A stretch of 64,000 nucleotides of DNA from Zootoca vivipara. Its lineage: Eukaryota. The notes under the pieces are model-generated. The model ran no database searches and was not told the DNA's origin. It saw nothing but the letters and a program-made list of their open reading frames with translations. Each line of letters begins with the position of its first letter. The first letter of the stretch is position 1. Of the stretch, positions 5,010 through 56,890 are shown piece after piece. The stretch is from positions 47,740,001 to 47,804,000 of the forward strand of contig NC_083280.1 in the NCBI RefSeq assembly GCF_963506605.1, in the 5' to 3' direction. Position numbers and translations under genes: made by a program.

Positions 5010-5313
5010 GTACCCATTCACTTATTTCCCACTTATTCTGGTTTCCTCCTCTTTGATAGCAAGTGGTATATGCAGAGCTGCAGCCAGACTTCATCACAAG
5101 GTGGTGGTTCCACAATTTTAGGTGTGATTTCAAAGAAATTAATTTAGATCTGACAAGTGTTTATGATTTCCCCCCCATTAGAAACATATAAATTAATTGA
5201 GAACAGTTAGTTTTAACTTCAGCAGCATTTACCTACTTACAGTGAACAGCTTATGTGGGAAAGACAGGTGTGTTTATTCAGGCAAATGAAAATCAACTAC
5301 ACTGGAAAAATTA

Positions 5314-5532
5314 CAGGTAGGTAGCCGTGTTGGTCTGCCGTAGTCGAAACAAAATTTTAAAAAAATCATTCCAGTAGCACCTTAGAGACCAACTAAGTTT
5401 GTCATTGGTATGAGCTTTCGTGTGCATGCACATGTATCTGAAGAAGTGTGCATGCACACAAAAGCTCATACCAATGACAAACTTAGTTGGTCTCTAAGGT
5501 GCTACTGGAAGGAATTTTTTTATTTTGTTTCG
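5314..5532. mobile_element. Penelope-like element derivative: two inverted pLTR copies forming a hairpin
   Basis: Both arms match 14401-14532; left arm is reverse complement and carries the 3' tail; 13-bp direct repeat ACTGGAAAAATTA flanks it (5301-5313, 5533-5545). Confidence 0.88.
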
Positions 5533-8349
5533 ACTGGAAAAATTAGGCAGGCACCCCTTGATCTAAAAGACTGGTGCTTTCTGTTTCAAAAGAGTTAAGT
5601 AAATTAATAGTACACAATGAGCAAGGTGAACAAAAGGTGTAAAATAAATAGAACAGCTTACTATAACTCAGAAGTGAAAAAAATGCCAAAGCTTATTTTC
5701 TCAAAGATTCAAAAACAGGTTAGGAAATAGTAAGGGCAAAACCCAATCAAATTAAGCACTTTCTTCAATTATTGTTTTAGATATGCTTCTCTCCCAGGCA
5801 GAGAATGGCAAGCTCTGCTGGCTGCAGCAACTCTAAACTGGACTTGCCAACTGACTAGAAAGCCAGTCTGGCCTGCTCTTGAATAGCAGCATCTCTGCAA
5901 GAGAAACTTGCCATGGAATGGAAATAAGCATTGCCATCTGCTAATGCTGTTGATCAAAGAACTATTATGGTGCATCAGCCAGTAACCAAGTTGTAACCCT
6001 ACTCATAACTGGTTTGTGGCACTATTGAGGCAAATAACGGATCCAGGCTTTGGTTGCCATCCTGATAAATTTCTAGGAAGGGAGCAAATAAGCTTAGCAT
6101 AGTGCTGCTTGAAAATCTAAATGTACTTATGAACATATGTTGTAAATATATAATGTTAAGTCATACCTGTATGTTTGAAGTTCATGGCTCCACCTAGCTT
6201 GCCACTCTCACCCGGGAACACTGAACTTCTCATAGCCAGTGTCTGCGTGCTTTGTGGACAATCTTTGAAACAATGAGCTCTTCGGTAGTTAATTAGCCAT
6301 TTATTCTTCGCCTTAATGCATTGTGGAGAGAAAACGGGCAGAAAAATGAAACTGTCAAATGCAGCCTGCAACCATAGAAAGTCTTCAGATGATCAGAGTT
6401 GCTCCTCTTGTTATCAGTCTCTTTCAGATTTGAGTTTCCTTGCAATTTTATATTTTGTACTCTTGAATGCATCTATCATTCTTCAGTGGAGAAGACACAG
6501 ACGGATGGGGATCTACTGGTTAATAGTTCCCAAAAGATGCAGCAGGCAGTTCTTAATTACCTGTAATGTGGTACAGTTGGCTTGTACTACTTTTCTGAAG
6601 ATTAATGAAACGCAAACAAGAGTTTTGCTGCTTTTTTTTCCTGAAGGAGCAGAGAAATTTGGCAGCAGAAACAGCTGAGTAATTCTGCAAACTATTTTGG
6701 GTGTCACTCATATTTCTTAGAAGGGAGAAGTATGTTATCTGATCATCTATAGAAACACACCTCTCTTTCTGATTTTACATCATCTCCACTGGAAAACTTA
6801 ATCTTTTGCCCCAGTTTGTTCACAGTAATTAAGTAACAAAAGGAGACTTAAAGTAGCCAATTGCATTCCTATCTCCAGTCCTGCAGAACTTCATGTTTCT
6901 CATCTTCAAAGCAAAAGTAGTTATTCACCATCTCAGAAGTGGTCACAGGAGACATTGCTTAAGAACAAGACCCAGTTTGCCTTATGAAAGAATTCAAAGT
7001 TTGTTTAGCGTTCACCTCATGGGCTGAATTTGCTTTTTGGAATTATATGCAGCAGCAGGTTTTTAATTTAATTTCCCCACTGAAGTAATTTTGCATAAAT
7101 ACACATTAAAAGTTTTGTTTTGCGTTATAGCACACCAGGCCACAGCTTTTCAAAATGCATAGCCATAGATACAGATACACCCTTTTCTAATGAATTAACA
7201 TAGTGTATAATGAAGTGATACCTTGGCTTCTTTAAAGGCAAACAATGGAATCCTTTATTAATGGAACATTGGTAATATCAAATTTGATTATTCTCGAGAA
7301 TGAAAGACTCTCAGGAACTGACCTTTGAAATTCAGTCGCTTCCTGATTACCTATTTATTTAGCATCCATTCTGATTTGTTTATAGGGAAGATAAACAATG
7401 CCATATCAAGCAATTGTTATCTCACAGTGACTTTTCTGATACATTCTTTACTACAGAAAGTACAAATCATTACCATATTGCCCTTGGGACTCTGTCAATG
7501 GTGATTTTCCTTCCTGTGCCATTTTTTTCAATGGGAAAGGGACAAGCATTGATGGAAGAGAAGTTTGTTCACCGTGCAGATGTTGCTCCTTCTTGCCCCC
7601 CCCCAATTCACTTTGATGACTCACATTGAACAAAATAAGCTTTGTACCATGCAACAGATTTGGGACCAGAATACTTGAATAATCATAGAAGCTTAGAAGA
7701 CTCCTGCACAAACAAGATACTCACTGCGACGTTTTAGATAAAATTTTCAGTGCCTGCCATAATGAAAGTGGTATCTGGTGATGCCATCACATCCACTGTT
7801 TAAATTAGCCATTTTTTAATAAAAAAGTTCTAAATTATTAACTTCCCCCCCAAAAGTGATATTTGATGGCAAAAGTAATATCCGTGTGCAGTATTAAGTG
7901 ATTCTTATGAAAAGAAAAAGCTGTAGAAATCTGACAGAGCATAATAATTATACTGTCAGAAAATACACAGTTCCATTTTCACAGAGCTGTCTAGATCACC
8001 AGGTTTCGCTTTTAGAGACTGCTCATCAGGGTAGTAAGATTTATTTTGTCTCTAATTACTGTGTGGTAGGTGTTGTTATGGAGAGCAATTCAAGAGAAGT
8101 AAGCTACAGTATATGCATTGTTGTTTTCAACGAGAACTTGTGAACCGATGCAGAACACCCACTTGCCAAACATATCATAGGACAATTTTGGGCAATAAGC
8201 TCCTGCAGTCCTGCGGTCCCGTGGAAAGCAACCATCACTGATAGCTGCCATGACTCTCCTTGCCTAGCTGCCTTGAACTAGGCATGGGCAGACCAGTCTA
8301 TTTCTCATCCTGTCAGTTACACATGTGTTTATTCATAAGTCCCTTCCAC

Positions 8350-9045: not shown

Positions 9046-9053
9046 CCTTAAAG

Positions 9054-9189
9054 CAGTGTTTCCCAACCTGGTGCCTCCAGCTGTTTTCGGACTACAATTC
9101 CCATCATTCCTAACCACTGGTCTTGCTAGCTAGGGATGATAGGAGTTGTAGTCCCAAAACATCTGGAGGCACAAGGTTGGGAAACACTG
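9054..9189. mobile_element. 136-bp hAT MITE
   Basis: Perfect 16-bp TIR CAGTGTTTCCCAACCT / AGGTTGGGAAACACTG; perfect TSD CCTTAAAG (9046-9053, 9190-9197). Confidence 0.92.
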
Positions 9190-10314
9190 CCTTAAAGAAA
9201 TTGCAGAGCGAACAAAGACCTTGAGCATCCCCACCTTGAACCCAGTTTTCCCTTTTCCCAACACTACCAGCTCTTGCAGGTTGTGGCTTTCAGAAACTGA
9301 AAGAAAAGTTAGGCTAAATCTCGCTTCTTCACGTATTTTGGCCAGTGAGCTGTAATTATCACAAAGAGAAGTTTGAAAATCCTTAGTAATTTGTTATTCC
9401 TGGCTTTGTTTTTTTTGTTGTTGTTGTTGTTTAAATGGCATTTTAATGCCTTCTTTTGCTCTCTTGATGTTGGTATGTAAAAAACCCTTTCCCCACAACA
9501 GCACATTTGTAAAAGTTATTTATTTGTAAATGTCCCGGAAACAACAGGTTGGGTATTTTTAATCTTCTGCAAAGGAGTAAGTGATAACACATATCCCTGT
9601 GATGTGTTGAAACATGGTTGGCAGCATATACATCCTCAGATGAACACGTGGCACCTGTAGGAGTTAAACTATGCTAAAGATGGGAATACATTTGTCAGTT
9701 GGTGCTGGCTGCTGAATTTCAAATCTGGATTTTACCTATGTATGCATCTGAATAAAAATGTAAGGGCAGAGAATATTCAAAAAGTTCTCGACAGTGACAT
9801 GGGGGGGGGGGGGAAGTCGCACACTTTGGCTGCTTTTAGGCATCACATTTACCATATGACAAAGTATGGCTGAAAGCACAAATCAATTAAATTCCTAAGA
9901 TTAAAAGTTCTCATGCCTTCCTGAGTAAAACTAGGGTAAATCAAAGGCAGGTTGTGAGGCACTCTGTGAGTCAGTGAAGAGCAATTTAAAGGAACAAGTA
10001 TGAAATGGATCCACAGGACCTTATAGTATGCTTTTAAACTACCTAGGAGGTATGTTAGGAGCTTACAGGCACAGATACAGTATATGCCTTGCTGCCAGGC
10101 AGCACTGATCAGTGGCATAAAAGAGCTCTCATGTTCCTCTATAGTGCTGAGTGGAGGGTTTGGGGTGAGCTGGGCTACCACTTCCTTACTCAGGGAAGGC
10201 TCCAGGATGAAAGGGCCCCAATAAAGTGCTCTCTTGTGGGTTTACTCCTTTGTGAATGGGAGCTGGCCATGGTGATCAGCAGCAGCAATGAAATCACCAT
10301 GAGGTGGCATAGAG

Positions 10315-10450
10315 CAGGCATCCCCAAACTTCGGCCCTTCTGATATTTTGGACTACAATTCCCATCTTCCCCTACCACTGGTCCTGTTAGCGAGGGATCA
10401 TGGGAGTTGTAGGCCAAAACATCTGGAGGGCCGCAGTTTGGGGATGCCTG
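10315..10450. mobile_element. 136-bp hAT MITE
   Basis: Perfect 16-bp TIR CAGGCATCCCCAAACT / AGTTTGGGGATGCCTG; TSD GCATAGAG / GCTTAGAG (1 mismatch). Confidence 0.9.
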
Positions 10451-10564
10451 GCTTAGAGCTACCATTTTAAATTTCCCACAATGCCACAGGACATTGTGGC
10501 ATAATTAAAATGGCAGCTGTAAGGTGCTAGGCATGGGAGGCCAGGAGAAGAGACAGTTTGGGGG

Positions 10565-11018: not shown

Positions 11019-11080
11019 GTGCATGGAATTTGGAGACATATTAGCCGCTCAAGAGTTAAACCCTGCCGAATTGCAGGCAG
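11019..11080 (+). other. Candidate 62-nt exon of an unidentified host transcript
   Basis: Pyrimidine-rich tract plus acceptor (TTTTCTTCACATAG|G) and donor CAG|GTAGGT; not a repeat I recognise; two open frames; no protein recognised. Confidence 0.3.
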
Positions 11081-12974
11081 GTAGGTCATTTTTTGTGTGT
11101 TTACTAGTCACTTTTTTAAAAAATTAAGACTGTACAATTGCTTGAGTGTCCAGTCCTGCCAATGATCATGCTCCACTTGGGCCTGCCCTGCTGCAATTCA
11201 GTGTAATAGCTCAATTCCCCTTGCTGTTTCAACACTGCCATATGGGGTCTGTGGGTGCTAGTTTGGCAAGAATGCTTTCTGATAGTGTCTTCTTGCTTGT
11301 TTCTGTGAAGCATGAGGGCTGGGTGACTTCCCAATGTTTGTGATACGATACATTTTCTCACTGACGCACATAAACACACACAGCAGCACCCCCTTCCCAG
11401 TTACATCCCTCTTCCAAGCCCTTTGACTGGAAATTGTTGGGTAAGTTTCTTGTCCTAAACTGGAAGCTAGAACTCTCAGCCTCCCTCCTCTCACTACCCT
11501 GGCATTCTCCTTATATGGTGTTGTGAATAATAACTGCAACACTTCGCACACAGTCTGCCTTTTTAGAGACAATTTTGAGCTCTGGATTCACACAAATCAC
11601 TACAAATCAATTCAGGACATCTCAGCCCACTCTGTAATGATTTGTAGCTGTCCTCATCTTTTCCAGATTGTGCACAAATCACCCCTATTAGGCTCAGGAC
11701 TCAGCCAGGTCAGTTGGACAGCCCTATGGGCAACTTTTAGTCTTAGCTCCATGACTTCCATTTGAATGAGAGTGGGCAAGTCAAAATATATTTTTATGGG
11801 AACACTGACAATTTTTTAAAAGAGGAGACAGGGACATTGCAAGGTGGGAGAGCTGCTGCAGCATAATAGCTATGAGACTAGGTTTTAATAAAAAAAAGGA
11901 TTGACTCTCAACTCCGTGGTAAAGTCACTAGGTAGCTTAAAATAACCCACTCTCTTTCTCTGTATCACACACCCACTGACAATATTGAGATTGCACTTAG
12001 TTCCTGCTAAAATCTATGGGATTTTAGCTAAGTCATGATTTACCCCTATTGATTTCAATTGGGCATAATTAATCTGGAGCCTACTCCTATTTCCTAAAAG
12101 GAAGCCTATTGCATAGCAATCTGATTTAAAACAGCAACACTTAAACAGCAGTAACTATCAAATACATATAAAAGGCCCAATATTTATTTTGCTTCTCTTA
12201 AACGACATTTCATCTAACGTACATAAAACACAGCTGTCAATTCCTGTACACACACAAAATAGTAAGTATGTGGCGTAAACACATCCATCAAATTTGAACT
12301 TCACTTTAAAGTCACTTCTGAATTTATGCTTTGTAGGGTTAAAAGGGGGTTGCATTAATGCATGTCTTGCTGAGTATATGTGTCTAAGTATCAGGCACAT
12401 GTGTCACATCAGCATTTACAAAAACCTGTCAAATTGATCTTATTGAGCAGCTGTGACTCAGAGCCGCTAATACCTTGATGGCACAATTCACCTGTCTTGA
12501 ATCAGATAGTTTCATTTCTGGGTTCCTCAGATCATGAAATTGCACCCAACTGTTGTTAAAAATAGCCAACCAGAGGTCTGCACATCAGTCTCTGTATGCT
12601 TTTTAAGGCGAATGCTTCATCATGCAACAAGCTCATAAACAGTTATGGAAAAGGAATACTACTTAGCAGAAAGTAATTCTTGTTGAAACAGTCAGTGGAC
12701 TAACTGTTTCTATTACTAATTCATGCTTAGGTTACTTTATGTGCTTTTTTTCAGTATCGCATTACAAGAGCATAAGGAGAGAGAAAATACCCAGCCATCC
12801 TGGCAGAACGGCAGTTTGGGAAATAAAATCCTTGGAATGAACACCAGGGGAAATGGTATCTTCCTCCTCTGGAAGGTCTATTCTCTCTGAACTAGGAAAA
12901 GAAACCCCATACCTTTAATATTACAATTTAAATGTAAACTTCCATAAGGACAATATCTGTATTGACTGCATATT

Positions 12975-13102: not shown

Positions 13103-14367
13103 ATCCTTGGCATATCACCATCCCCCTGATGGAAGAATCCTCTTGGAATGATGACCTGGCGCTCCCCAAGGCAAACATCATGGAGGAGGAGACCATGTCA
13201 AGGGACCACCAGCTAGTACAGGTGGATCCAGGATCCTCAGGGGGATATAGCAAGCCAAACTTCTCTTCAAGACACTGGTTCCTTCATGGAACCAGACACA
13301 GAATCCCAGTGTTCACCTAAGAAACAAGGACTCGGTAAGATACTCCTCAGGGGAAGATCAAATCCTCGGCCAACCAAAATTACCTGCAGGCTGGGCTTCT
13401 GAAAGCTCAGGCTTAAAAGCCTTCAGTTCCAGTACAGAGTACTGGAATTGTGTCTTTACAACAGCTCTCTGCTTTGCGTCTTCATGTTTCTCTAGCTGAT
13501 CCTTGGATCCCCACTCCCCAACCCCTTCCCATGTTGGCTTTGGACTGCCTAGACCTTGCTGCCCATGGGGTTAAACAACAGATTGCTGTCTGCGATCCCA
13601 GTACTGTCAGTTGTTAACTCGCAGCTGTTCTGCCTGTGTGCCACCTGCAGCAGGGCACCTATGCCTTTGTTTGGCATAGATTATTATCTGACACATGGTA
13701 CTTCTGATTCACCATTGAATATATATGTATGACACTATATTAAAAATGAACAGGTTGATACCTGCAAATATCGACAACTACATTTTATCTCTCACATCAG
13801 AAAGTAGCATACAGTATGTACTCATCTTAACCCTGGATTGCCAATGGTGTTGTCTCAAATTGTAAAAGGACATTTTACAATATGGAAATTCCAGGTAGTC
13901 AGCCATAAAATTTTGCACGTTGCTATCTTTCAAGCTATCTTGTAGGATTGTTGTGAACATAAAAATACACTCACCCTTCAGCTCTCTATATTGGACAAAC
14001 AGGCCAAACCCTACGCCAAAGGATAAATGGGCATAAATCTGACACCAGGAATGACAAGACAGAGAAACCAGTAGGAGAACACTTCAATCTCCCAGGACAT
14101 TCTATACAAGATCTCAAAGCAGCTGTTTTATTACAGAAAATTTTCAGAAACAGACTGGAAATTGCAACTCATTAGCAAGCTTAAAACCATGGAGCCACCT
14201 GGTATGAACAGAGACATAGGATTCTTATCTCATTATGCATGATCAAGCTTTCTTTAGCACCTCAGCCCAGGACTAATTGCAGCCATCAGCAGCCATTAAC
14301 AGCCATCTACAGGTTTACCACTCCCACCAGCCCATCACCCATTCCCACCCACCCCCACCACCCTCTG

Positions 14368-14377
14368 TATATATATA
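14368..14377 (+). promoter_or_regulatory. Putative TATA box in PLE pLTR
   Basis: TATATATATAGG about 25-30 nt upstream of the point where three derivative copies begin. Confidence 0.5.
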
Positions 14378-14401
14378 GGGTCTGACACTTCTGTTTCTAG
14401 T

Positions 14402-14439
14402 GTATCTGAAGAAGTGTGCATGCACACGAAAGCTCATAC
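14402..14439 (+). ncRNA. Minimal type I hammerhead ribozyme motif (PLE type)
   Basis: GUAU-CUGAAGA-A-GUGUG(CAUG)CACAC-GAAA-GC-UC/AUAC: intact core, 4-bp stem I, 5-bp stem II, vestigial palindromic stem III (AGCU); predicted cleavage after 14435. Confidence 0.8.
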
Positions 14440-14619
14440 CAAAATAAAAACTTAGTTGGCCTTTAAGGTGCTACTGAAGGAATTTTTTTATTTTGTTTTG
14501 ACTCAGACCAACACGGCTACCTACCTGTAACTAGACCTATGGAGGAAGGGCATGATAAAAAAAATTAGCAAATAAATAGTGAATGCAGTGAATGCAGAGG
14601 TAGTGATCTAGCTATTTCA

Positions 14620-43496: not shown

Positions 43497-44109
43497 GAGA
43501 GATTTTACTTTCTTGGGTTCCATGATCACTGCAGATGGTGACAGCAGTCACGAAAATTAAAAGACATTTGCTTCTTGGGAGAAAAGCAATGACAAACCTG
43601 GACAGCATCTTAAAAAGCAGAGACATCACCTTGCTACCAAAGGTCCACATAGTTAAAGCTATGGTTCTCCCAGTAGTGATGTATGGAAGTGAGAGCTGGA
43701 CCATAAAGAAGGCTGGTTGCCAAAGAATTGATGCTTTTGAATTATGGTGCTGGAGGAGACTCTTGAGTGTCCCATGGACTGCAAGAAGATCAAACCTATC
43801 CATTCTGAAGGAAATCAGCCCTGAGTGCTCACTGGAAGGACAGATCCTGAAGCTGAGGCTCCAATACCGGTACTTTGGCCACTTCATGAGAAGAGAAGAC
43901 TCCCTGGAAAAGACCCTGATGTTGGGAAAGATTGAGGGCACAAGGAGAAGGGGACGACAGAGGGCGAGATGGTTGGACAGTGTTATCGAAGCCACCAACA
44001 TGAGTCTGACCAAACTGTGGGAGGCAGTGGAAGACAGGGGTGCCTGGCATGCTCTGGTCCATGGGGTCACGAAGAGTCGGACACGACTAAATGACTAAAC
44101 AACAACAAC
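43497..44109 (+). mobile_element. BovB (RTE) LINE, 5'-truncated
   Basis: DFTFLGSMITADGDSSHE, 1-nt frameshift, then IKRHLLLGRKAMTNLDSILKSRDITL...RIDAFELWCWRRLL...EKTLMLGKIEG..RRGRQR.RWLD...GVTKSRTRLND*; (CAA)n tail; TSD ATATT(G/C)CATATGA. Confidence 0.97.
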
Positions 44110-46111
44110 ATATTGCATATGACTTCACAGTCTTGATGTGGCTGAGGTCAGTCCCTCTGAAGGAACCTCTGAAGTCATGTAGCCAAGTCCTAGTGCTGCA
44201 TGGTACCAATGAGAAACAGGTTGTGTGTAACTGTGTTTGCAAGTAAAAACCCCTCTTTACTTTAAGCAAATAGAGTTCCAGATTGCCTTTACGATGATAG
44301 AAATTTGAATATTAACTCTCTGTGAAATTTACCTTTGAATATTTGGCTTTAACGGCTCTGGTTTCTTTCATTTCCTTTCAACTTGCCTTTAAATATTATG
44401 TCTCAAAAACAAACACACCATAACTTGTTTATGATCTTCTTTTTTACTATCATAAAGCAGGCCTTTCATTCCTGCTGGAAACCCGCTCAGCTATGCGTGG
44501 CACCTAAGTATAAATTTCAAAAAGCAAACCAATAACACAAAAAGGGGCTAACGCTGAATTAATGATAACTGAGCACCAAAATCACAACAGACAAATTGGT
44601 AAGCCCTTCTCTGAATTAGTTCCAATCAGAATTCACATGTTGTGAGTTTAGAAAATTTGCCCACTTCAGACTTCACAATGAATATTCAATTTAGCTCTCT
44701 TTCTCACTACTTAGCCCTGCAGAAACAGAAGTGTCACCCCAAAGACAAGTTGTTCAGTGCTCCAGTAGCAATCCCAGAGACAATTTCAGAGAGCACAGGA
44801 CCTTTATGATGCAAGAATAAAAGCAAACTCAGGGAAAATACGTGGGGAGAGTCAAAGGGAGCAGTGCGGAGCGGAGTCAGGGCTTTTTCACCTGCCTCCT
44901 CTTATCTGTACAATCCTGACCTCGGGGGTTGCCTTTCCTGCTTTCAAAATCTAACTGACACCTCAGCTGTAGTCCCAAGTGTAGCACAAGATCAACTTGG
45001 AAAGGCTTTCCACATAAAGTATTGTTGGAAAAATGGGAACTGGCAGTCTCATTCATCCTAAATAAGTCTAAAACATAGAATGCATTCCAGATTGCATTTA
45101 ATAATTCTTTTACTATGGCCTGCATAGCCTGGGTGTGCAGAGCACTAAAATGGTGGTTTTCTTTTTGTATTTTCACCGCCAATAAATAGTAAATAAGTTT
45201 TCAGACTAATACCCAGCCCACTGCCACCACTGCAATCAGCTTGGTATTATAATGGTATGCCGTGCCTGACCTCCTCAATTGGCTTATGAAACAGAGATGG
45301 GGAGGGGGAGCCTGAAAGAAGCAGATGCAGAGCATTTATTTTATTCTTTAATTGGTTTTTGTTGTGAGCAATGCAGACAGACAGACAAAATGACTTTCAG
45401 TGTCTGAATTCCCCCCTAAGGTTAGAGTGACAGAATGCGGCTAGCCAATGTCAAGGTGTCCTTAAAGCCATGCTCAGCACCCTCTCTGCATGATGAATTC
45501 CACAGTAACAGCCTTTTTTTCTGTTTGGGTGAATGCCCTTTGCTTACATGCTGAAGGTGGATTAGGATGCTTACAGGTTGTGTTGGTGAGCTGGCTAGAT
45601 TAGCTGTCCACCTGAGTTCCTCATGGGGAATTTGATCATGCAGCCGATCCCCGAAGAAAGCAGATTTGCTAGCCCTATGCTCATCACTTGGGGAGCGCTG
45701 ATGATAGGGCTCGGGGATCACTCTGCTTGGCACTTTGACAAGCCACCTGTCAAAGATGGCCTGTGGGACAGATTAGGAGCCGGAGCTCCTGAAAAAATGT
45801 AGTAGTGATGGGGTAAGTTATGGAACAGTAACTGGTTAAAGAGCCTGAAGCAGAGAGCAGGAATAAAATTATACTTCTCACAATGGAAGGAAAGAAGTGA
45901 GGTCCACAAAGGATTTGTATCAGGACTCTTGCCTTTTAACTTGTTCATTAACAATTCGAAATTAGAGTTGAGCAGTGAGGTGGGCAAGTTTGCTGAGGTC
46001 TGACACCAAGTTATTCAGGGGTTAGTAACAGAAAGGGATTGCAAACAGTTTATTGTGAATTATAAAAGATTCACATATGTGCCATTTTACTTCATATAAC
46101 TGAATTGACTA

Positions 46112-46275
46112 TGAACTCGGCTATACAGCTGCAAATACAACGTTTTAAGTGTGTTTTAAGTGCATTATACAAATGTGACACTAGATGGCGATGGTGAGCT
46201 TAATGGCAAATTATTTTTCAATGCGCTTTTAAAAAAAGCATTTTCACAGCGTTTTTTTATGTGTGTCTTGATTCC
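46112..46275. mobile_element. MITE-like element, possibly PIF/Harbinger, related to 53400-53560
   Basis: Ends GAACTCGGCTATAC...GTGTCTTGAT resemble the reverse complement of the 53400 element. Confidence 0.4.
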
Positions 46276-47053
46276 ACCTATATTTACAATGTATCAGGAG
46301 AAGAGCCAGTGGATGGTTGGTTGCATTATGCCAAAATCAATGTGCGCTTTCATAAGTGAGGTCCTGGTTATTTATATAAATACAGAGAATTGAAATCTGA
46401 TGTATTTAATTGGCTAAAGAAATGGACATTCTGACCACAGTGGAAGGGGAATCTGTGTGCACCTTGAAGGAGAGGTCAGGAGATTTAACTAAGAGAGAGC
46501 TGGAAGCCGGACCAGCTAAGGGTCAGTGTGGCTTAAAGAGGCCTGGAGAGCCTCAAGAAAAACCCAAATAGCTGCAATTACTGGCTTGAACAGGAGAAAG
46601 CTGTGAGGATTAGGATACTTTTCAGGAGACAGTCTTTGAAGGGGCATGGAAGCCAAAAGTCACCCTGGAGTGTTGAGTTCCTGAGACAACAGAGGATTGC
46701 TGGACCAGGAGGAGAATTTCAGCAGGAGCCCTGAATACAATGGGCTCCAGAAGCTCTAAAAGAATCTTTCCAAAGTGTTGACAAGTGAGCAATTCAATGG
46801 AAAATGCAATTTAATGTAAGTTAAGTGCAAGATTATGCACAGTGAGGCAAAATGTCCTAACTTTACATATCACTGATGGAATCTGAGCTGGCAGACTAGC
46901 TACAGGTAGGTAAGAGCTCTAGGTGGATAACTGAATAACTATGCAGCAGCTGTGGCCAAGGCTAATTCCATGTTAGTGACCATTAGGAAAGGATATCAAA
47001 ATAAAAATAATGTAATGCAATGTGAACTTGAAATACTGTGTATTTTTCTGCTT

Positions 47054-47290
47054 GTTGTTGTTGTTTAGTCGTTTAGTCGTGTCCGACTCTTCGTGACCCC
47101 ATGGACCATAGCACGCCAGGCACTCCTGTCTTGCACTGCCTCCCGCAGTTTGGTCAGACTCATGTTTGTAGCCTCGAGAACACTGTCCAACCATCTTGTC
47201 CTCTGACGTCCCCTTCTCCTAGTGCCCTCAATCTTTCCCAACATCAGGGTCTTTTCCAAGGATTCTTCTCTTCTCATGAGGTGGCCAAAG
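47054..47290 (-). mobile_element. BovB 3' fragment
   Basis: ORF 47065..47277 MRREESLEKTLMLGKIEG...GVTKSRTRLND; (CAA)n tail; perfect TSD TATTTTTCTGCTT (47041-47053, 47291-47303). Confidence 0.97.
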
Positions 47291-50051
47291 TATTTTTCTG
47301 CTTACTGTATCTCAAAAAACACATTGTAGAGCTAAGGAAAGCACAGAAAAAGACAACTAAATGGACCAGGTCACAGTCATTGAAATTAATCCAGCCTCAC
47401 TAGGCCAGATGGTGCTCTAGATGCCTCCATCAGATGTGTCCAAACTGTAGTGTCTAATTTTGAATTAATATGAGCAATTTTATCTTCAAAGTGCCTAGGA
47501 AACTGATCACAGCAGACTACTGGGGGTGCCATCAACTCTTCTTCCTGGGCAGTTCCCACGAGCCACTATCTCTACACAGAAAAGCTTTATAGGGCAGCTA
47601 CTTGAGGATGCAATGATGCTGGTGACAACTTCCACATGGTAGGCACATGTTGTCCTTCATCATTTGCAGCTCCCCAGAATACCAGGGGACTCTGTGGGCC
47701 CTGCAATTTCAGAGAGAGCATTTAGGAGTGATCCTGTCAAGAGCCCTTTCCACCTACAAGTTCTACAGTGAGACCAGAGCATCAACAAAAGTACCAATGG
47801 TGTTGGCCAGAAGGTCTCCCAGAGCTACCACCAGGCTCAGAGGTTAGAGGCATCAAAAGTCATTTTGTCCAACCCCCTGCCAATCCAGGAAATCCACAAC
47901 TACAGAATTACTAGTTGTTGTAGAACAATAGCAGGAGCTGACTACTGTCCTCAAGTCTGCTTCTGGGCATCCAAGAGGAGATTGGTTGGTGACAACCAGA
48001 AACAGGATGCTGGAGTAGATGGACGTAGGATTTGATCCATCTCCCCCAACCCCTGCCCTGAGGCACCAAGAATTGTCAGAAACAATAATAATTGCTTTCA
48101 TTAAAGAACAGGATTTTCACCCCTGGCAGTGGGCCTTGAATCATATTTTACTTCACCAGTCATCCAAACCATTATACTTTACTAAAACAATATTAGTACT
48201 GAAAGAAGAAGAAAAGGTGGGGAAAGGAAATCTGTATTACTTCAGTGACTCATAACAAAACCACCTAACCTCGCAGGAGATGTAACATATCCACAGTTGG
48301 TGTTGCTGAAAATGCTTCATGCGTATGCATCTCCCAGACTATTAATAAAATCCTAATTATGCACCCTGGGTGGGAAGCTCTTAATCATCATAGTGATCTT
48401 AATTAGGATTGATTTGTAGTCCAGCTGAGAGTTCTTCCTTTGCCACAGGAGATACCTGTTTGCAGACAAGTATGGCATTAATCTGAAAAGGGGGGTTGGG
48501 GTGAAATGAGGTTTTGTTTCCTATTTGCTTACTCCTGAATATCATTATTACAGGCTATCAGACAAAAAGGAAGCCCCTTCGTACTCATTTCTTTTTTCCC
48601 TTTGCAAAAATCTCTCTGCCTTTCTTCACTTTGTGCTTTATCCAAAATATATACTCTCTGTTTCCTAAGCATGTGCTCACTGAGTAGACATCCAGTCAAT
48701 TGCCAGATTTGTGCATTTTCAAAATGATGAACACTGAGGGGTAAACAAAATATTTTATAAGATAGCCCATTTGTTAAACATATGGGGTGCAGTTCTTCTG
48801 CTGAAATCACTAACAAAACCCACATTTTCTTTCTACTGGGCAATCTTCCTTTGCCTACAATTACATTACTCAAAGGGCTAAATTTAGTATCTTTGCATTG
48901 GAAAAGTACCTTTACATTGGATTTTGATTACTTGAGGTCAGCTAACTGAATTTTATTTAAACAGCCTTATCTGGCACACCCACAAAGCGCAATTATGTAT
49001 TTGGATTTTCTGTCGTGAATTTTGAAGCAAGATTCATGAGAAGAATCTCCTCGGTGATCAGCAGCTGAAGAACTGGATTTGGGGTCTACACATCTTAGCT
49101 TGTGGCAACCTTGCATCTTAGTCTAACGCCCAGTGATTTTCTTTAGACTACCCATTGAGCTTCGAGCGGACCTGGTTTACCACATCCAAATCCCGCAATC
49201 AACTCATGGTACCTTACTGGCTCTCACTGCTGCTGAAGGGGCAGGCCTTGAAGATGATGGTGTGCTGGATTCTTAATATGATCCATCCATCGTTGGTAGT
49301 TTTTATGAGAATGGCTACACAGCCTATGGGAGGAAATCCAACTACTAGACATATTGTATGGCAATTTTGAAAGAACAACTGGTTTATAGCTTTGCCCACC
49401 TTATTTATGGCTACCTATGACATTCAGCTCAATAGTGCAGATGTTATCAGTGCTAAGAGGAGGCAAGACTGTGGTGTTTTATCCCCCTCTAATGGTGACT
49501 TGCAGATACTCATGTGATATATTCTTACCTTCCTTGTTGCAGTGCAAGAATCGAGGAATCTAGATTTTGGCATGCTGAGAATCTCACATCATATTTATAA
49601 CAAAATACAAGCATCTAGCCCTCATTAATGTGAAGCTTGGAAATATGTGAGCAGTATCTGTACCTGGCATTTAAAATAAGGGTGAGGGGCTTCCCTTCTC
49701 TGCAATGTCTCTGGTACTCACCATGTGGGTAATTTAAAGCTTTCCCCAAACAATTTTGTTAGGATGATTTAATACAAAATTCAGTGAAGGAAAAAGTAAA
49801 TGGGGGAAATAACAAATGTGATTAGTAGAAGATCACATTTTTTTGTTTGTGGCTAACACTAAGCTGAAATGTCCACATGGTGTGTGTTAACCCTGTTTTT
49901 CCATTTCTGGCACTCAACAAGGGATTAGATCTCAGAATTATCCTTGTGCATGCCTTACATTATTACTAAATGTAAGTTGGGTAGCCCAGTGGCTACAACT
50001 GTACTGTCTTCACAACTGTATAGAATGGTGGTTTTCTCAAATACAGCCTGT

Positions 50052-55121: not shown

Positions 55122-56696
55122 CAGAATGCCTAAAACTTCACTGAAGTTACTAACAAAATCTCCCTTTGATTTTGGTAGGCTTTCAATGAGGCCTGGGATG
55201 TGTTCTGTGATTCAGTTTCAAATTGGGGTTTTTTTATAAAAAAAAATGTAAGATATAACGTGGCAAGGGAAAATTAAGAGGAGGAATGAAAACAATCTTA
55301 AAGCTTCATTCCCTCAGAGATCTTGAAGTGAAGTTTTTTTTCCTTCCCCTTCACAGATCTAATGTTGAAGAATTTTCAGCCCCCTGAGCAGGTAGCATAT
55401 GAATTAGGTTTTCAGGATTGTCTGACTTAATGGCAGAATAATTGGAACTTACTGCATCAAATCTATATTGACATTCAGGAATAGTTTCACTTTTATTGTG
55501 CGTTATCCTACCGCACAGAAAGCTGCTGCAATTATCAATTACGAACCAATATCAATATTTAGTCAAGATCATTTTTAACACCTGCAGCTGAAATTTGTTT
55601 TAAAAATAAAAAGCCAGGTTTATGGACTCCTGGCATGAGGAAATCTACTATGCTTTTAACAAATCTGTGGTATGTGCATGTTGCCAAGCTTATGTCAATA
55701 AACATGTTAGCCCTATGCACAAGGTTGGTCCAAGACATTATTCTGCCTGAGGCGAAAGATAAAATGATGTCTCCTCCCCTTCTTAAATGTATAAAAGTTA
55801 AATTGTAAGACAACAGGACATTGTCCTCTACTGCAATTGTGGTCAGCAAGTATTTACCTCCCAATGAAAGTTAAGCATGAGGGTTTCAACAGCATTCATC
55901 ATGATGCCTTTCAGATTATGGCAAAAGGATTGCACCTAAAGATCAGCACTAGAAAGCTGCATCCCACAATCTTAATTTTCAATGCCTTTCAGACTAACCT
56001 TGGCATGGTTTTAAGATTTAAACCATTTGTGTTCCCCTTTCCTCCAGGCCATGTATTGGTCTGGCTCTTATGGCGAGCCCTTTAAAAGACAGGGAGCTAA
56101 CGATTTTATTCAGAACTATTGTTCCCTGCCCTAAACCCTGGAGATGAGATGAAGTTCAAATCAAAATATTAAGTGTGGTCCCATAAATTGCCAGGAAAAA
56201 AGAAGTGCAGTTTCTGTAACGACCTTTATTGCTTTACAGAGAAGCTCACATATTTAGTGTCTTCGGCAAACTATTGAGAAATACCAGCAGAGATTCAGCA
56301 GGCACTTTCTGTTTCAACTTTTAAATGCTTCCTGAAAACTTTTCTATTCAATCCGGCTTATGTAGGCAATTAATAATACATTTCCCCCCATAATAGCTGA
56401 TTTCTGATTTCAACATTTTAATACGGTTTTAATTTTATGTTATACATATAAAATGGTTGTAAAGCATCCTGGGGTGTTTTTTTTTTTAAGGAGCAGAGGT
56501 ATATAAATATTTTTATAAAATAAATAAATAAATAAATATATTGGTAGCTTAGTAAACTGTTATGGAAAACAGGAGTAGATCACACAGATCCTTAGTAGGA
56601 ACTGCAGCACCAAATAAAGCCAGCTGTACATTAAAATTTCACATGACATGTTGATTGGTTCATCATTATGGCTTATCAACATCAGTTCCTTTAATA

Positions 56697-56890
56697 AATA
56701 AATTCCTTCCAGCAGCACCTTAGAGACCAACTAAGTTTGTCATAGGCATGAGCTTTCGTGTGCATGCACACTTCTTCAGATATATACCTATGACAAACTT
56801 AGTTGGTCTCTAAGGTGCTGCTGGAAGGAATTTTTTTTATTTTGTTTCGACCACGTCAGACCAACACGGCTACCTACCTGTAACTACCGT
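56697..56890. mobile_element. Penelope-like derivative: inverted pLTR hairpin with intact hammerhead core on the minus strand (56746-56783)
   Basis: Arms match 14401-14532; 13-bp direct repeat AGTTCCTTTAATA (56684-56696, 56891-56903). Confidence 0.88.

Follow-up and report, generated by a model that had tools for sequence, protein, structure and literature searches.

Hammerhead ribozymes in Penelope-like element (PLE) pLTRs, a TATA box in the pLTR and the PLE tail have all been published before. Minimal hammerheads with weak activity as dimers were described in PLE pLTRs including those of turtle and snake (PMC4209133), and the role of the hammerhead in endonuclease-bearing (EN+) PLEs has been called unclear (PMC8557442). 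For PAc, the Poseidon element of Anolis carolinensis, two internal RT starts were reported to define the tail, both strands were found to be extended, and the hammerhead was described as assisted by protein and dispensable for insertion (PMC11167929). Elements of the Neptune/Nematis clade have the motif CX2-5CxxC in a linker that joins RT to EN (PMC8557442). A 2026 retrozyme preprint names Neptune and Poseidon as the vertebrate PLE groups and describes a non-LTR retrozyme as a tandem repeat with a hammerhead in every unit. For L1 insertions it is accepted that an extra G reflects copying of the cap (PMC11702581).

A copy of a related element is found in the stretch of 64,000 nucleotides from Zootoca vivipara analysed here, which is called the window (NC_083280.1, positions 47,740,001 to 47,804,000). 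The copy is an ordinary broken repeat, 5'-truncated and frameshifted, and reaches from 13974 to about 14543 on the plus strand. Over 13974-14532 it aligns to the intact copy L032 with 533 matches, 26 mismatches and 14 gap columns (95% identical), and its 3' end at 14533-14543 was judged by the tail-to-ORF sequence of a second intact copy, L188. A first-pass annotation had given the piece as 13975..14532; the start was therefore one base off, and the 3' end is probably at about 14543, taking in the ATG of the element ORF. The endonuclease stop at 14242 named there is the stop of the family, but as the window copy has lost 14 nt after 14159 its own frame ends before that stop. The copy begins upstream of the YIG (13987-95) but past the first half of the GIY-YIG motif. 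No TSD adjoining it was visible in the flanks of the alignment. It is a single unit and not a tandem, and thus no retrozyme in the above sense.

Table 1. Features of the Penelope-like copy in the window
Feature	Position	Strand	Basis or remark
5'-truncated Penelope-like retrotransposon copy (EN end, pLTR, tail, first bases of next ORF)	13974..14543	+	alignment to L032, L188
GIY-YIG endonuclease, C-terminal part	13974..14242	+	Pfam GIY-YIG E=1.2e-4, 22.7 bits; alignment; ORF list
End of GIY-YIG frame in window copy	14173-75		frame shifted by 14-nt deletion (alignment)
Family stop codon TGA	14240-14242		
C-rich pLTR tract upstream of TATA element	14320..14363	+	varies among subfamilies
TATA-like element TATATATATA	14368..14377	+	putative promoter element
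Initiator-like region, likely main capped start G14402	14396..14402	+	5' breakpoints and extra G
Minimal type I hammerhead	14402..14439	+	matches consensus in PMC4209133 supplement
Helix I, GTAT/ATAC	14402-05/14436-39		
Core CTGAAGA, then extra A	14406-12, 14413		
Helix II	14414-18/14423-27		within 14-nt palindrome 14414-27
GAAA	14428-31		
Loopless helix III remnant AGCT (AGCU)	14431-34		palindromic
C17	14435		predicted cut after C14435
Upstream AUG in loop II, opening 11-codon uORF in the window copy's subfamily	14420..14455	+	
AATAAA	14443-48		differs in sister copies
Short 3'-end zone, T-rich, putative RT start 1	14484..14502	+	82 of 173 pieces end here
PLE tail, with long 3'-end zone 14524-14536, putative RT start 2	14503..14536	+	80 of 173 pieces end at 14524-14536
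Element ORF start remnant (ATG at 14539)	14539..14543	+	L188 continues into 901-aa ORF

The window contains three further pieces of this family. Two of them, at 5311-5535 and 56696-56886, are head-to-head fold-back pairs whose joint lies at or close to the helix II palindrome, and hairpin RNA could arise from them; Rfam miRNA matches at 5379-5500 and 56715-56818 scored below the gathering thresholds and were rejected, as they are these fold-back pairs. At 36420-36468 on the minus strand there is a short deleted copy which begins at the equivalent of 14403. Apart from the element, a 62-nt stretch bounded by AG and GT (11020-11081, plus strand) may be a host exon, which would place the element in an intron, and an Rfam tRNA match above its gathering score (30852-30920, plus strand, 36.6 bits) may be a tRNA-derived SINE. 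Palindromic MITE-like repeats at 52-199, 9048-9195 and 10309-10456 gave mir-5408 matches below threshold, and 240-nt inverted repeats, 93% complementary and 2.9 kb apart, delimit a possible DNA transposon at 43871-47292.

The family is abundant: a 29-mer from its downstream part occurs 31,065 times in the genome as an exact match. It has the make-up of an EN+ PLE: a single ORF with RT and, at its C-terminus, the GIY-YIG endonuclease (RVT_1 3e-12 and GIY-YIG 4e-5 in L032; 901 amino acids in L188), pLTRs in partial tandem or inverted arrangement together with 5' truncation, and a tail of 30-40 bp at one end. The nearest named homologues among the 120 listed are turtle proteins with 60-74% identity, and none of these 120 bears a clade label. 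In the L188 ORF the endonuclease is preceded by CX4CX2C, a linker of the Neptune/Nematis type. The family is assumed to be of this type by its linker, and Neptune is taken since Neptune and Poseidon are the vertebrate groups; the same zinc-finger-like linker speaks against the Penelope/Poseidon clade, which has none. Tandem arrays of internally deleted units were also seen, one with a period of 598 bp and four copies (L169, G000:C1:2777435-2779741), which keeps the hammerhead in each unit and is thus retrozyme-like, and one with a period of 293 bp and ten ORF-start matches (L277, G000:C3:91909017-91911680).

All motif positions in the first-pass annotation were borne out by a check of the sequence, including the palindromic AGCU of the stem III remnant. 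The reading as a PLE pLTR with a minimal hammerhead also held, with the conserved core (C3-A9, G12-A15.1, U16.1 and H17) and a palindrome at 15.2-16.2 within 14402-14439, and with the endonuclease end and pLTR anatomy around it. The hammerhead search which had been proposed along with it was carried out with a relaxed minimal-hammerhead descriptor, and yielded three matches in the window and 93 in 585 kb of targeted DNA from contig 1, but none in 10-kb stretches taken at arbitrary places, 190 kb in all, and none in each of the reversed controls. The hammerhead is thus not a product of chance. Exact hammerhead cores number 19,841 genome-wide and none in the control. The Rfam scan did not detect the hammerhead at 14402-14439, and its fold was unremarkable compared with shuffles (MFE z -0.4 to -0.6), though the helix pairs do form. 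A second hammerhead family was not found by the relaxed descriptor in the 585 kb of targeted and 190 kb of arbitrary DNA.

The start of transcription was read from the 5' ends of genomic copies. In the 585 kb, 159 pieces could be anchored, mostly from the first 3.5 Mb of one contig. Thirty-nine of them begin at 14398-14408, 20 at 14345-14397, 33 at 14409-14433 in the body of the hammerhead (mostly inversion joints), two at 14434-14438, five further downstream and 60 beyond 14335. Per base, the hazard of a 5' break amounts to 0.030 at 14398-14408; it drops to 0.005 further upstream, and to 0.003 where the cut is predicted. The same pattern was obtained with 100 pieces picked regardless of the hammerhead (23, 11, 21, 1, 4 and 40 in the same order). 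Genome-wide, the templated T before G14402, the first base of helix I, is lost in 5,188 of 18,736 copies. No pile-up was seen at the cut site, where 236 of 7,677 copies were affected, point mutations included, in the only subfamily whose spacing fits the pattern, which is not that of the window copy. As 5' ends do not pile up at the cleavage site, the RNA was likely copied uncut. Contigs under four other organism labels were compared; X8 and X9 gave no match, while in X10 and X12 loose ends occur at the base equivalent to 14402. Pieces bearing the ORF start (n=54) add little to the mapping because their 5' ends are scattered: 25 are downstream of 14448 or unanchored, nine long, nine in the hammerhead body, eight in the start zone, two upstream and one at the cut site.

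Mapping to a single reference had also produced 5' ends at 14338, 14387 and 14401; these were false, being due to subfamily divergence, and were gone when 41 real upstream references were used. A capped start at 14400 was rejected as well. These ends are mostly preceded by a T (72 of 100), probably reflect microhomology with the helix II palindrome, and were hence not counted as capped. Directly 5' of helix I, at 14382-14400, the sequence looks like a 3' splice site, as in Drosophila virilis; its AG is missing in one subfamily.

The base in front of G14402 was informative too. In the first 100 listed copies in which the T is replaced, it is G in 66, A in 19 and C in 15 (hand count; 30% G expected, p=3e-13), compared with 16 G of 100 before 14400 and 10 of 34 at ordinary upstream truncations. 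All 20 G-type copies inspected out of these 66 are devoid of upstream pLTR sequence, so they do not represent a subfamily. Joints of the ORF to 14402, for which the sequence on either side is known, number 12 when counted as distinct; in 10 of them there is a G which comes from neither side, one is ambiguous and one has A (three loci sharing one joint were counted once). The contig joints to 14402, among those listed, have the G in six of six. Four G-type copies out of the 20 have a G in the target as well, so that microhomology is possible in these, and by their TSD only one to three of the 20 are clearly non-templated. At the cut site the ratio of G to A is 30:21 versus 66:19 before 14402, a modest difference (p=0.03). 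The G is likely the signature of a reverse-transcribed cap, by analogy with L1, although terminal transferase activity of the RT could also add C to the cDNA end. In three sets of loci (L038-L067, L208-L237 and L258-L276) pieces whose end lies 28-265 nt into the ORF are followed by a new piece which begins at the cap; the extra G there is often preceded by A or TA, which suggests template jumps and added bases.

Together, the 5' breaks and the extra G support the claim of the first-pass annotation that transcription starts at the ribozyme, and the main capped start is likely G14402, the first base of the hammerhead. The TATA-like register at 14372 lies 30 nt before it, and in sister subfamilies TA(C/T)ATA is retained with roughly this spacing while the spacer has diverged. 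The spacing of about 30 nt to a purine start and the extra G, as read from genomic copies, fit a TATA-driven Pol II promoter. Three RNA-seq runs (X21-X23), of which about 6% each was read, are fragment libraries dominated by read-through and therefore could reveal neither a start nor a cut. Reads were on both strands, 87-89% of them ran into unrelated sequence, no molecule started at 14402 and no reads piled up at 14436. RNA and DNA depth both formed a block over the equivalent of 14402-14533, and RNA depth past the ORF start was 12 or less.

At the other end, the 3' ends of the 173 pieces fall almost entirely into the two zones of Table 1, with 11 elsewhere. Head-to-head pairs (n=44) have one short and one long end in 34 cases and share at least 8 flank bases, as target duplications, in 33, and many inversion joints coincide with the helix II palindrome. 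Such paired short and long ends match the two-strand, two-site priming shown for PAc (PMC11167929), and priming of this kind is proposed for this family. The first-pass annotation had postulated an RNA of about 130 nt. This was not supported: in intact copies the tail runs directly into the 901-aa ORF, whose ATG is equivalent to 14539, there are two zones of 3' ends, and the AATAAA is not shared by sister copies. Tail followed by ATGG gave 165 exact matches, and of 30 inspected about half extend further. Given an ORF start at 14539, and lengths of 90 and 130 nt that are more simply taken as those of cDNAs reaching from two internal RT start zones to the cap, the RNA likely exceeds 130 nt. A separate short RNA may exist besides the longer transcript.

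Conservation of the ribozyme was examined in 47 long copies. Shared variants occur in only one of 38 hammerhead columns (N7) versus 13 of 21 in the spacer, and loop II is invariant apart from private changes; 31 copies picked regardless of the hammerhead gave the same picture. The hammerhead is thus more conserved than the spacer, but the part of the downstream UTR that was not used for anchoring, with one of 14 columns variable in the unbiased subset, equals the hammerhead in conservation (p=0.47), and conservation within the family is therefore not specific to the ribozyme. Helix covariation was not found in the 47 copies, and in the contigs X10 and X12 no frequent variant falls inside the hammerhead. 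Compared with a single turtle motif, one compensatory change each is seen in helices I and II. Co-folding with a nearest-neighbour model, which leaves out tertiary contacts, gave a 14-bp duplex dimer through the helix II palindrome at -30.6 kcal/mol, with pairing that crosses the AGCU helix, and a double hammerhead at -11.1 kcal/mol, which is less stable than two monomers at -13.6. In the double hammerhead the pairing via AGCU is nested, giving a helix III that exists in the dimer only. The palindromic stem II does favour dimers, as had been suggested, but it is no help to an active one, since the 14-bp duplex excludes the nested helix III; the turtle loop II is also not palindromic.

Taken as a whole, the data are probably best explained by a pLTR with a TATA promoter and a capped RNA which starts at G14402 and is copied uncut into DNA. 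The observations behind this are the anatomy, the copy number, the 5' breaks at 14398-14408, the extra G, the two 3'-end zones, and the head-to-head pairs with their target duplications. The RNA would begin on the first base of the hammerhead and run on into the 901-aa ORF. The RT-EN protein would nick both target strands, and one cDNA would be primed from each of the two internal start zones, about 90 and about 130 nt from the cap. RT would run off the cap and copy it as G, and the two cDNAs would be joined by microhomology, often within palindromic helix II, with tens of thousands of short hammerhead-bearing pieces as the outcome. The window copy would belong to the longer class and have the downstream pLTR as its template. 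In active lineages the hammerhead is predicted to be functional, though weak alone and in need of a partner for helix III or of the element's protein. Its cleavage would lie off the insertion path, and the likeliest effect of cutting would be loss of the cap and of the AUG in loop II.

Only tentatively, and as something we regard as possible rather than expected, the hammerhead may further be seen as a cap-proximal switch between two fates of the RNA. The uncut capped RNA would be the RT template, held back by the loop-II AUG, and assisted cleavage would free the rest for cap-independent translation or decay. Speculatively, protein- or dimer-assisted cleavage would remove cap and AUG together as a 34-nt piece. 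Ribozyme-linked translation in viruses and LINEs (PMC13725137) offers an analogy.

Other explanations have to be weighed against copying of an uncut capped RNA. It is rather unlikely that the hammerhead does not cut and has been retained as a structure which binds protein or serves the promoter. The poor cleavage of published minimal hammerheads (PMC4209133), the low stability of the double hammerhead and the conservation of the entire 5' UTR would suit such a role; on the other hand the catalytic positions are all kept, with only N7 varying among subfamilies, and the hammerhead of PAc cuts once its protein is added (PMC11167929). A discrete RNA of about 130 nt, made of ribozyme and tail, self-cleaving as a palindrome-aided dimer and mobilised like a SINE, seems improbable. 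Both-strand RNA reads enter unrelated flanks and mirror the DNA profile, the tail goes on into the ORF, two fixed 3' ends fit internal RT starts, and the dimer via helix II excludes helix III, against which stand the depth block over 14402-14533, the shortness of most pieces and an AGCU remnant that is palindromic like those of the published minimal hammerheads (PMC4209133).

The model of PMC4209133, in which tandem transcripts are cleaved into single units by the hammerheads of the two pLTRs and the resulting circles are the RT template, appears quite improbable for this family. Sixty of the 159 pieces do extend past the start site as far as the endonuclease, there are perfect tandem repeats with spacings of 598 bp and about 3030 bp, and a religated circle would leave no scar. 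Priming from the downstream pLTR explains the long pieces equally, however, linear cut RNA should give ends at 14436, which were so rare both locally and genome-wide, and uncleaved RNA was the dominant substrate of PAc, for which cleavage was dispensable in vitro (PMC11167929). It is very doubtful that the pile-up at 14399-14403 reflects, in place of a transcription start, stalling of the RT or a 3' splice site with CTGAC as a branch-like motif, a stretch of pyrimidines and its AG at 14399-14400. The sequence is acceptor-like, and in D. virilis the 3' end of an intron abuts helix I (PMC4209133), but 13 of the 47 long copies have C at 14400 and thus no AG, the extra G sits before 14402 and not at the AG, the ORF-side joints are not at GT donors, and no GT..AG skip to 14402 was found among the joints listed; stalling at a hairpin would be expected on its 3' side. 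One point against a capped start at the hammerhead is that the D. virilis Penelope promoter is TATA-less, with the start upstream of the intron (PMC2377424).

If a capped uncut RNA is the template, thousands of genomic copies serve as a fossil map of 5' ends by which the RNA likely starts with the first base of helix I, and the inserted cDNAs from uncut RNA agree in vivo with the in vitro result on PAc. Such a start and an uncut template narrow the possible jobs of the ribozyme to cap removal, translation control and turnover. The presence of short hammerhead motifs in the genome, about 20,000 of them, would also be accounted for with no need of a small RNA of their own, and the switch, if true, would mean that PLE hammerheads act in regulation and not in the production of RT templates. 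The start of a PLE on the first base of helix I with a cap-type G, as judged from genomic copies, is likely new; neither was found in a literature search with scant coverage of subscription papers and some unreadable supplements.

In its ribozyme the locus is closest to a motif of Chrysemys picta bellii in the supplement of PMC4209133, with which it shares the flanks and the GC at 15.2/16.2. Common to the minimal hammerheads of that paper and the window motif are the core CUGANGA/GAAA/UH, an extra base after A9, the G10.1-C11.1 pair, a loopless palindromic helix III, a short helix I, and U-rich 5' and AU-rich 3' flanks. The two differ in loop II, a 4-nt palindrome with AUG here and 7 nt without a palindrome in Chrysemys picta bellii, and the part of PMC4209133 available to us puts no transcription start at helix I, where it likely lies in the window family. 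Penelope of D. virilis likewise starts within the pLTR and has a hammerhead in the 5' region, but from a TATA-less internal promoter and with a 75-bp intron 46 bp past the start (PMC2377424), which sets its hammerhead apart from the cap. In Adineta vaga, Pen2a_Av (PMC3846280) resembles the window family in a pLTR motif of TATATATA plus an Inr-like sequence, an inverted shorter pLTR, a 31-bp tail and a TSD; its promoter was proposed from motifs only, whereas here the start was located by breakpoint statistics. Full-length LINE-1 insertions (PMC11702581) share the non-templated G at the 5' junction, but LINE-1 is another class of element, and the cap-type cDNAs of the window family are mostly 90-130 nt long. 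PAc (PMC11167929) is likewise a squamate EN+ PLE with a hammerhead at the junction of pLTR and ORF, two internal 3' ends, extension of both strands and no RNA ends at the cut site. Its ORF begins in helix II and its RT starts lie 111-118 nt inside the ORF, whereas in the window family, with its CX4CX2C linker of the Neptune/Nematis type, the ORF begins 100 nt past the hammerhead and both 3' ends are in the 5' UTR.
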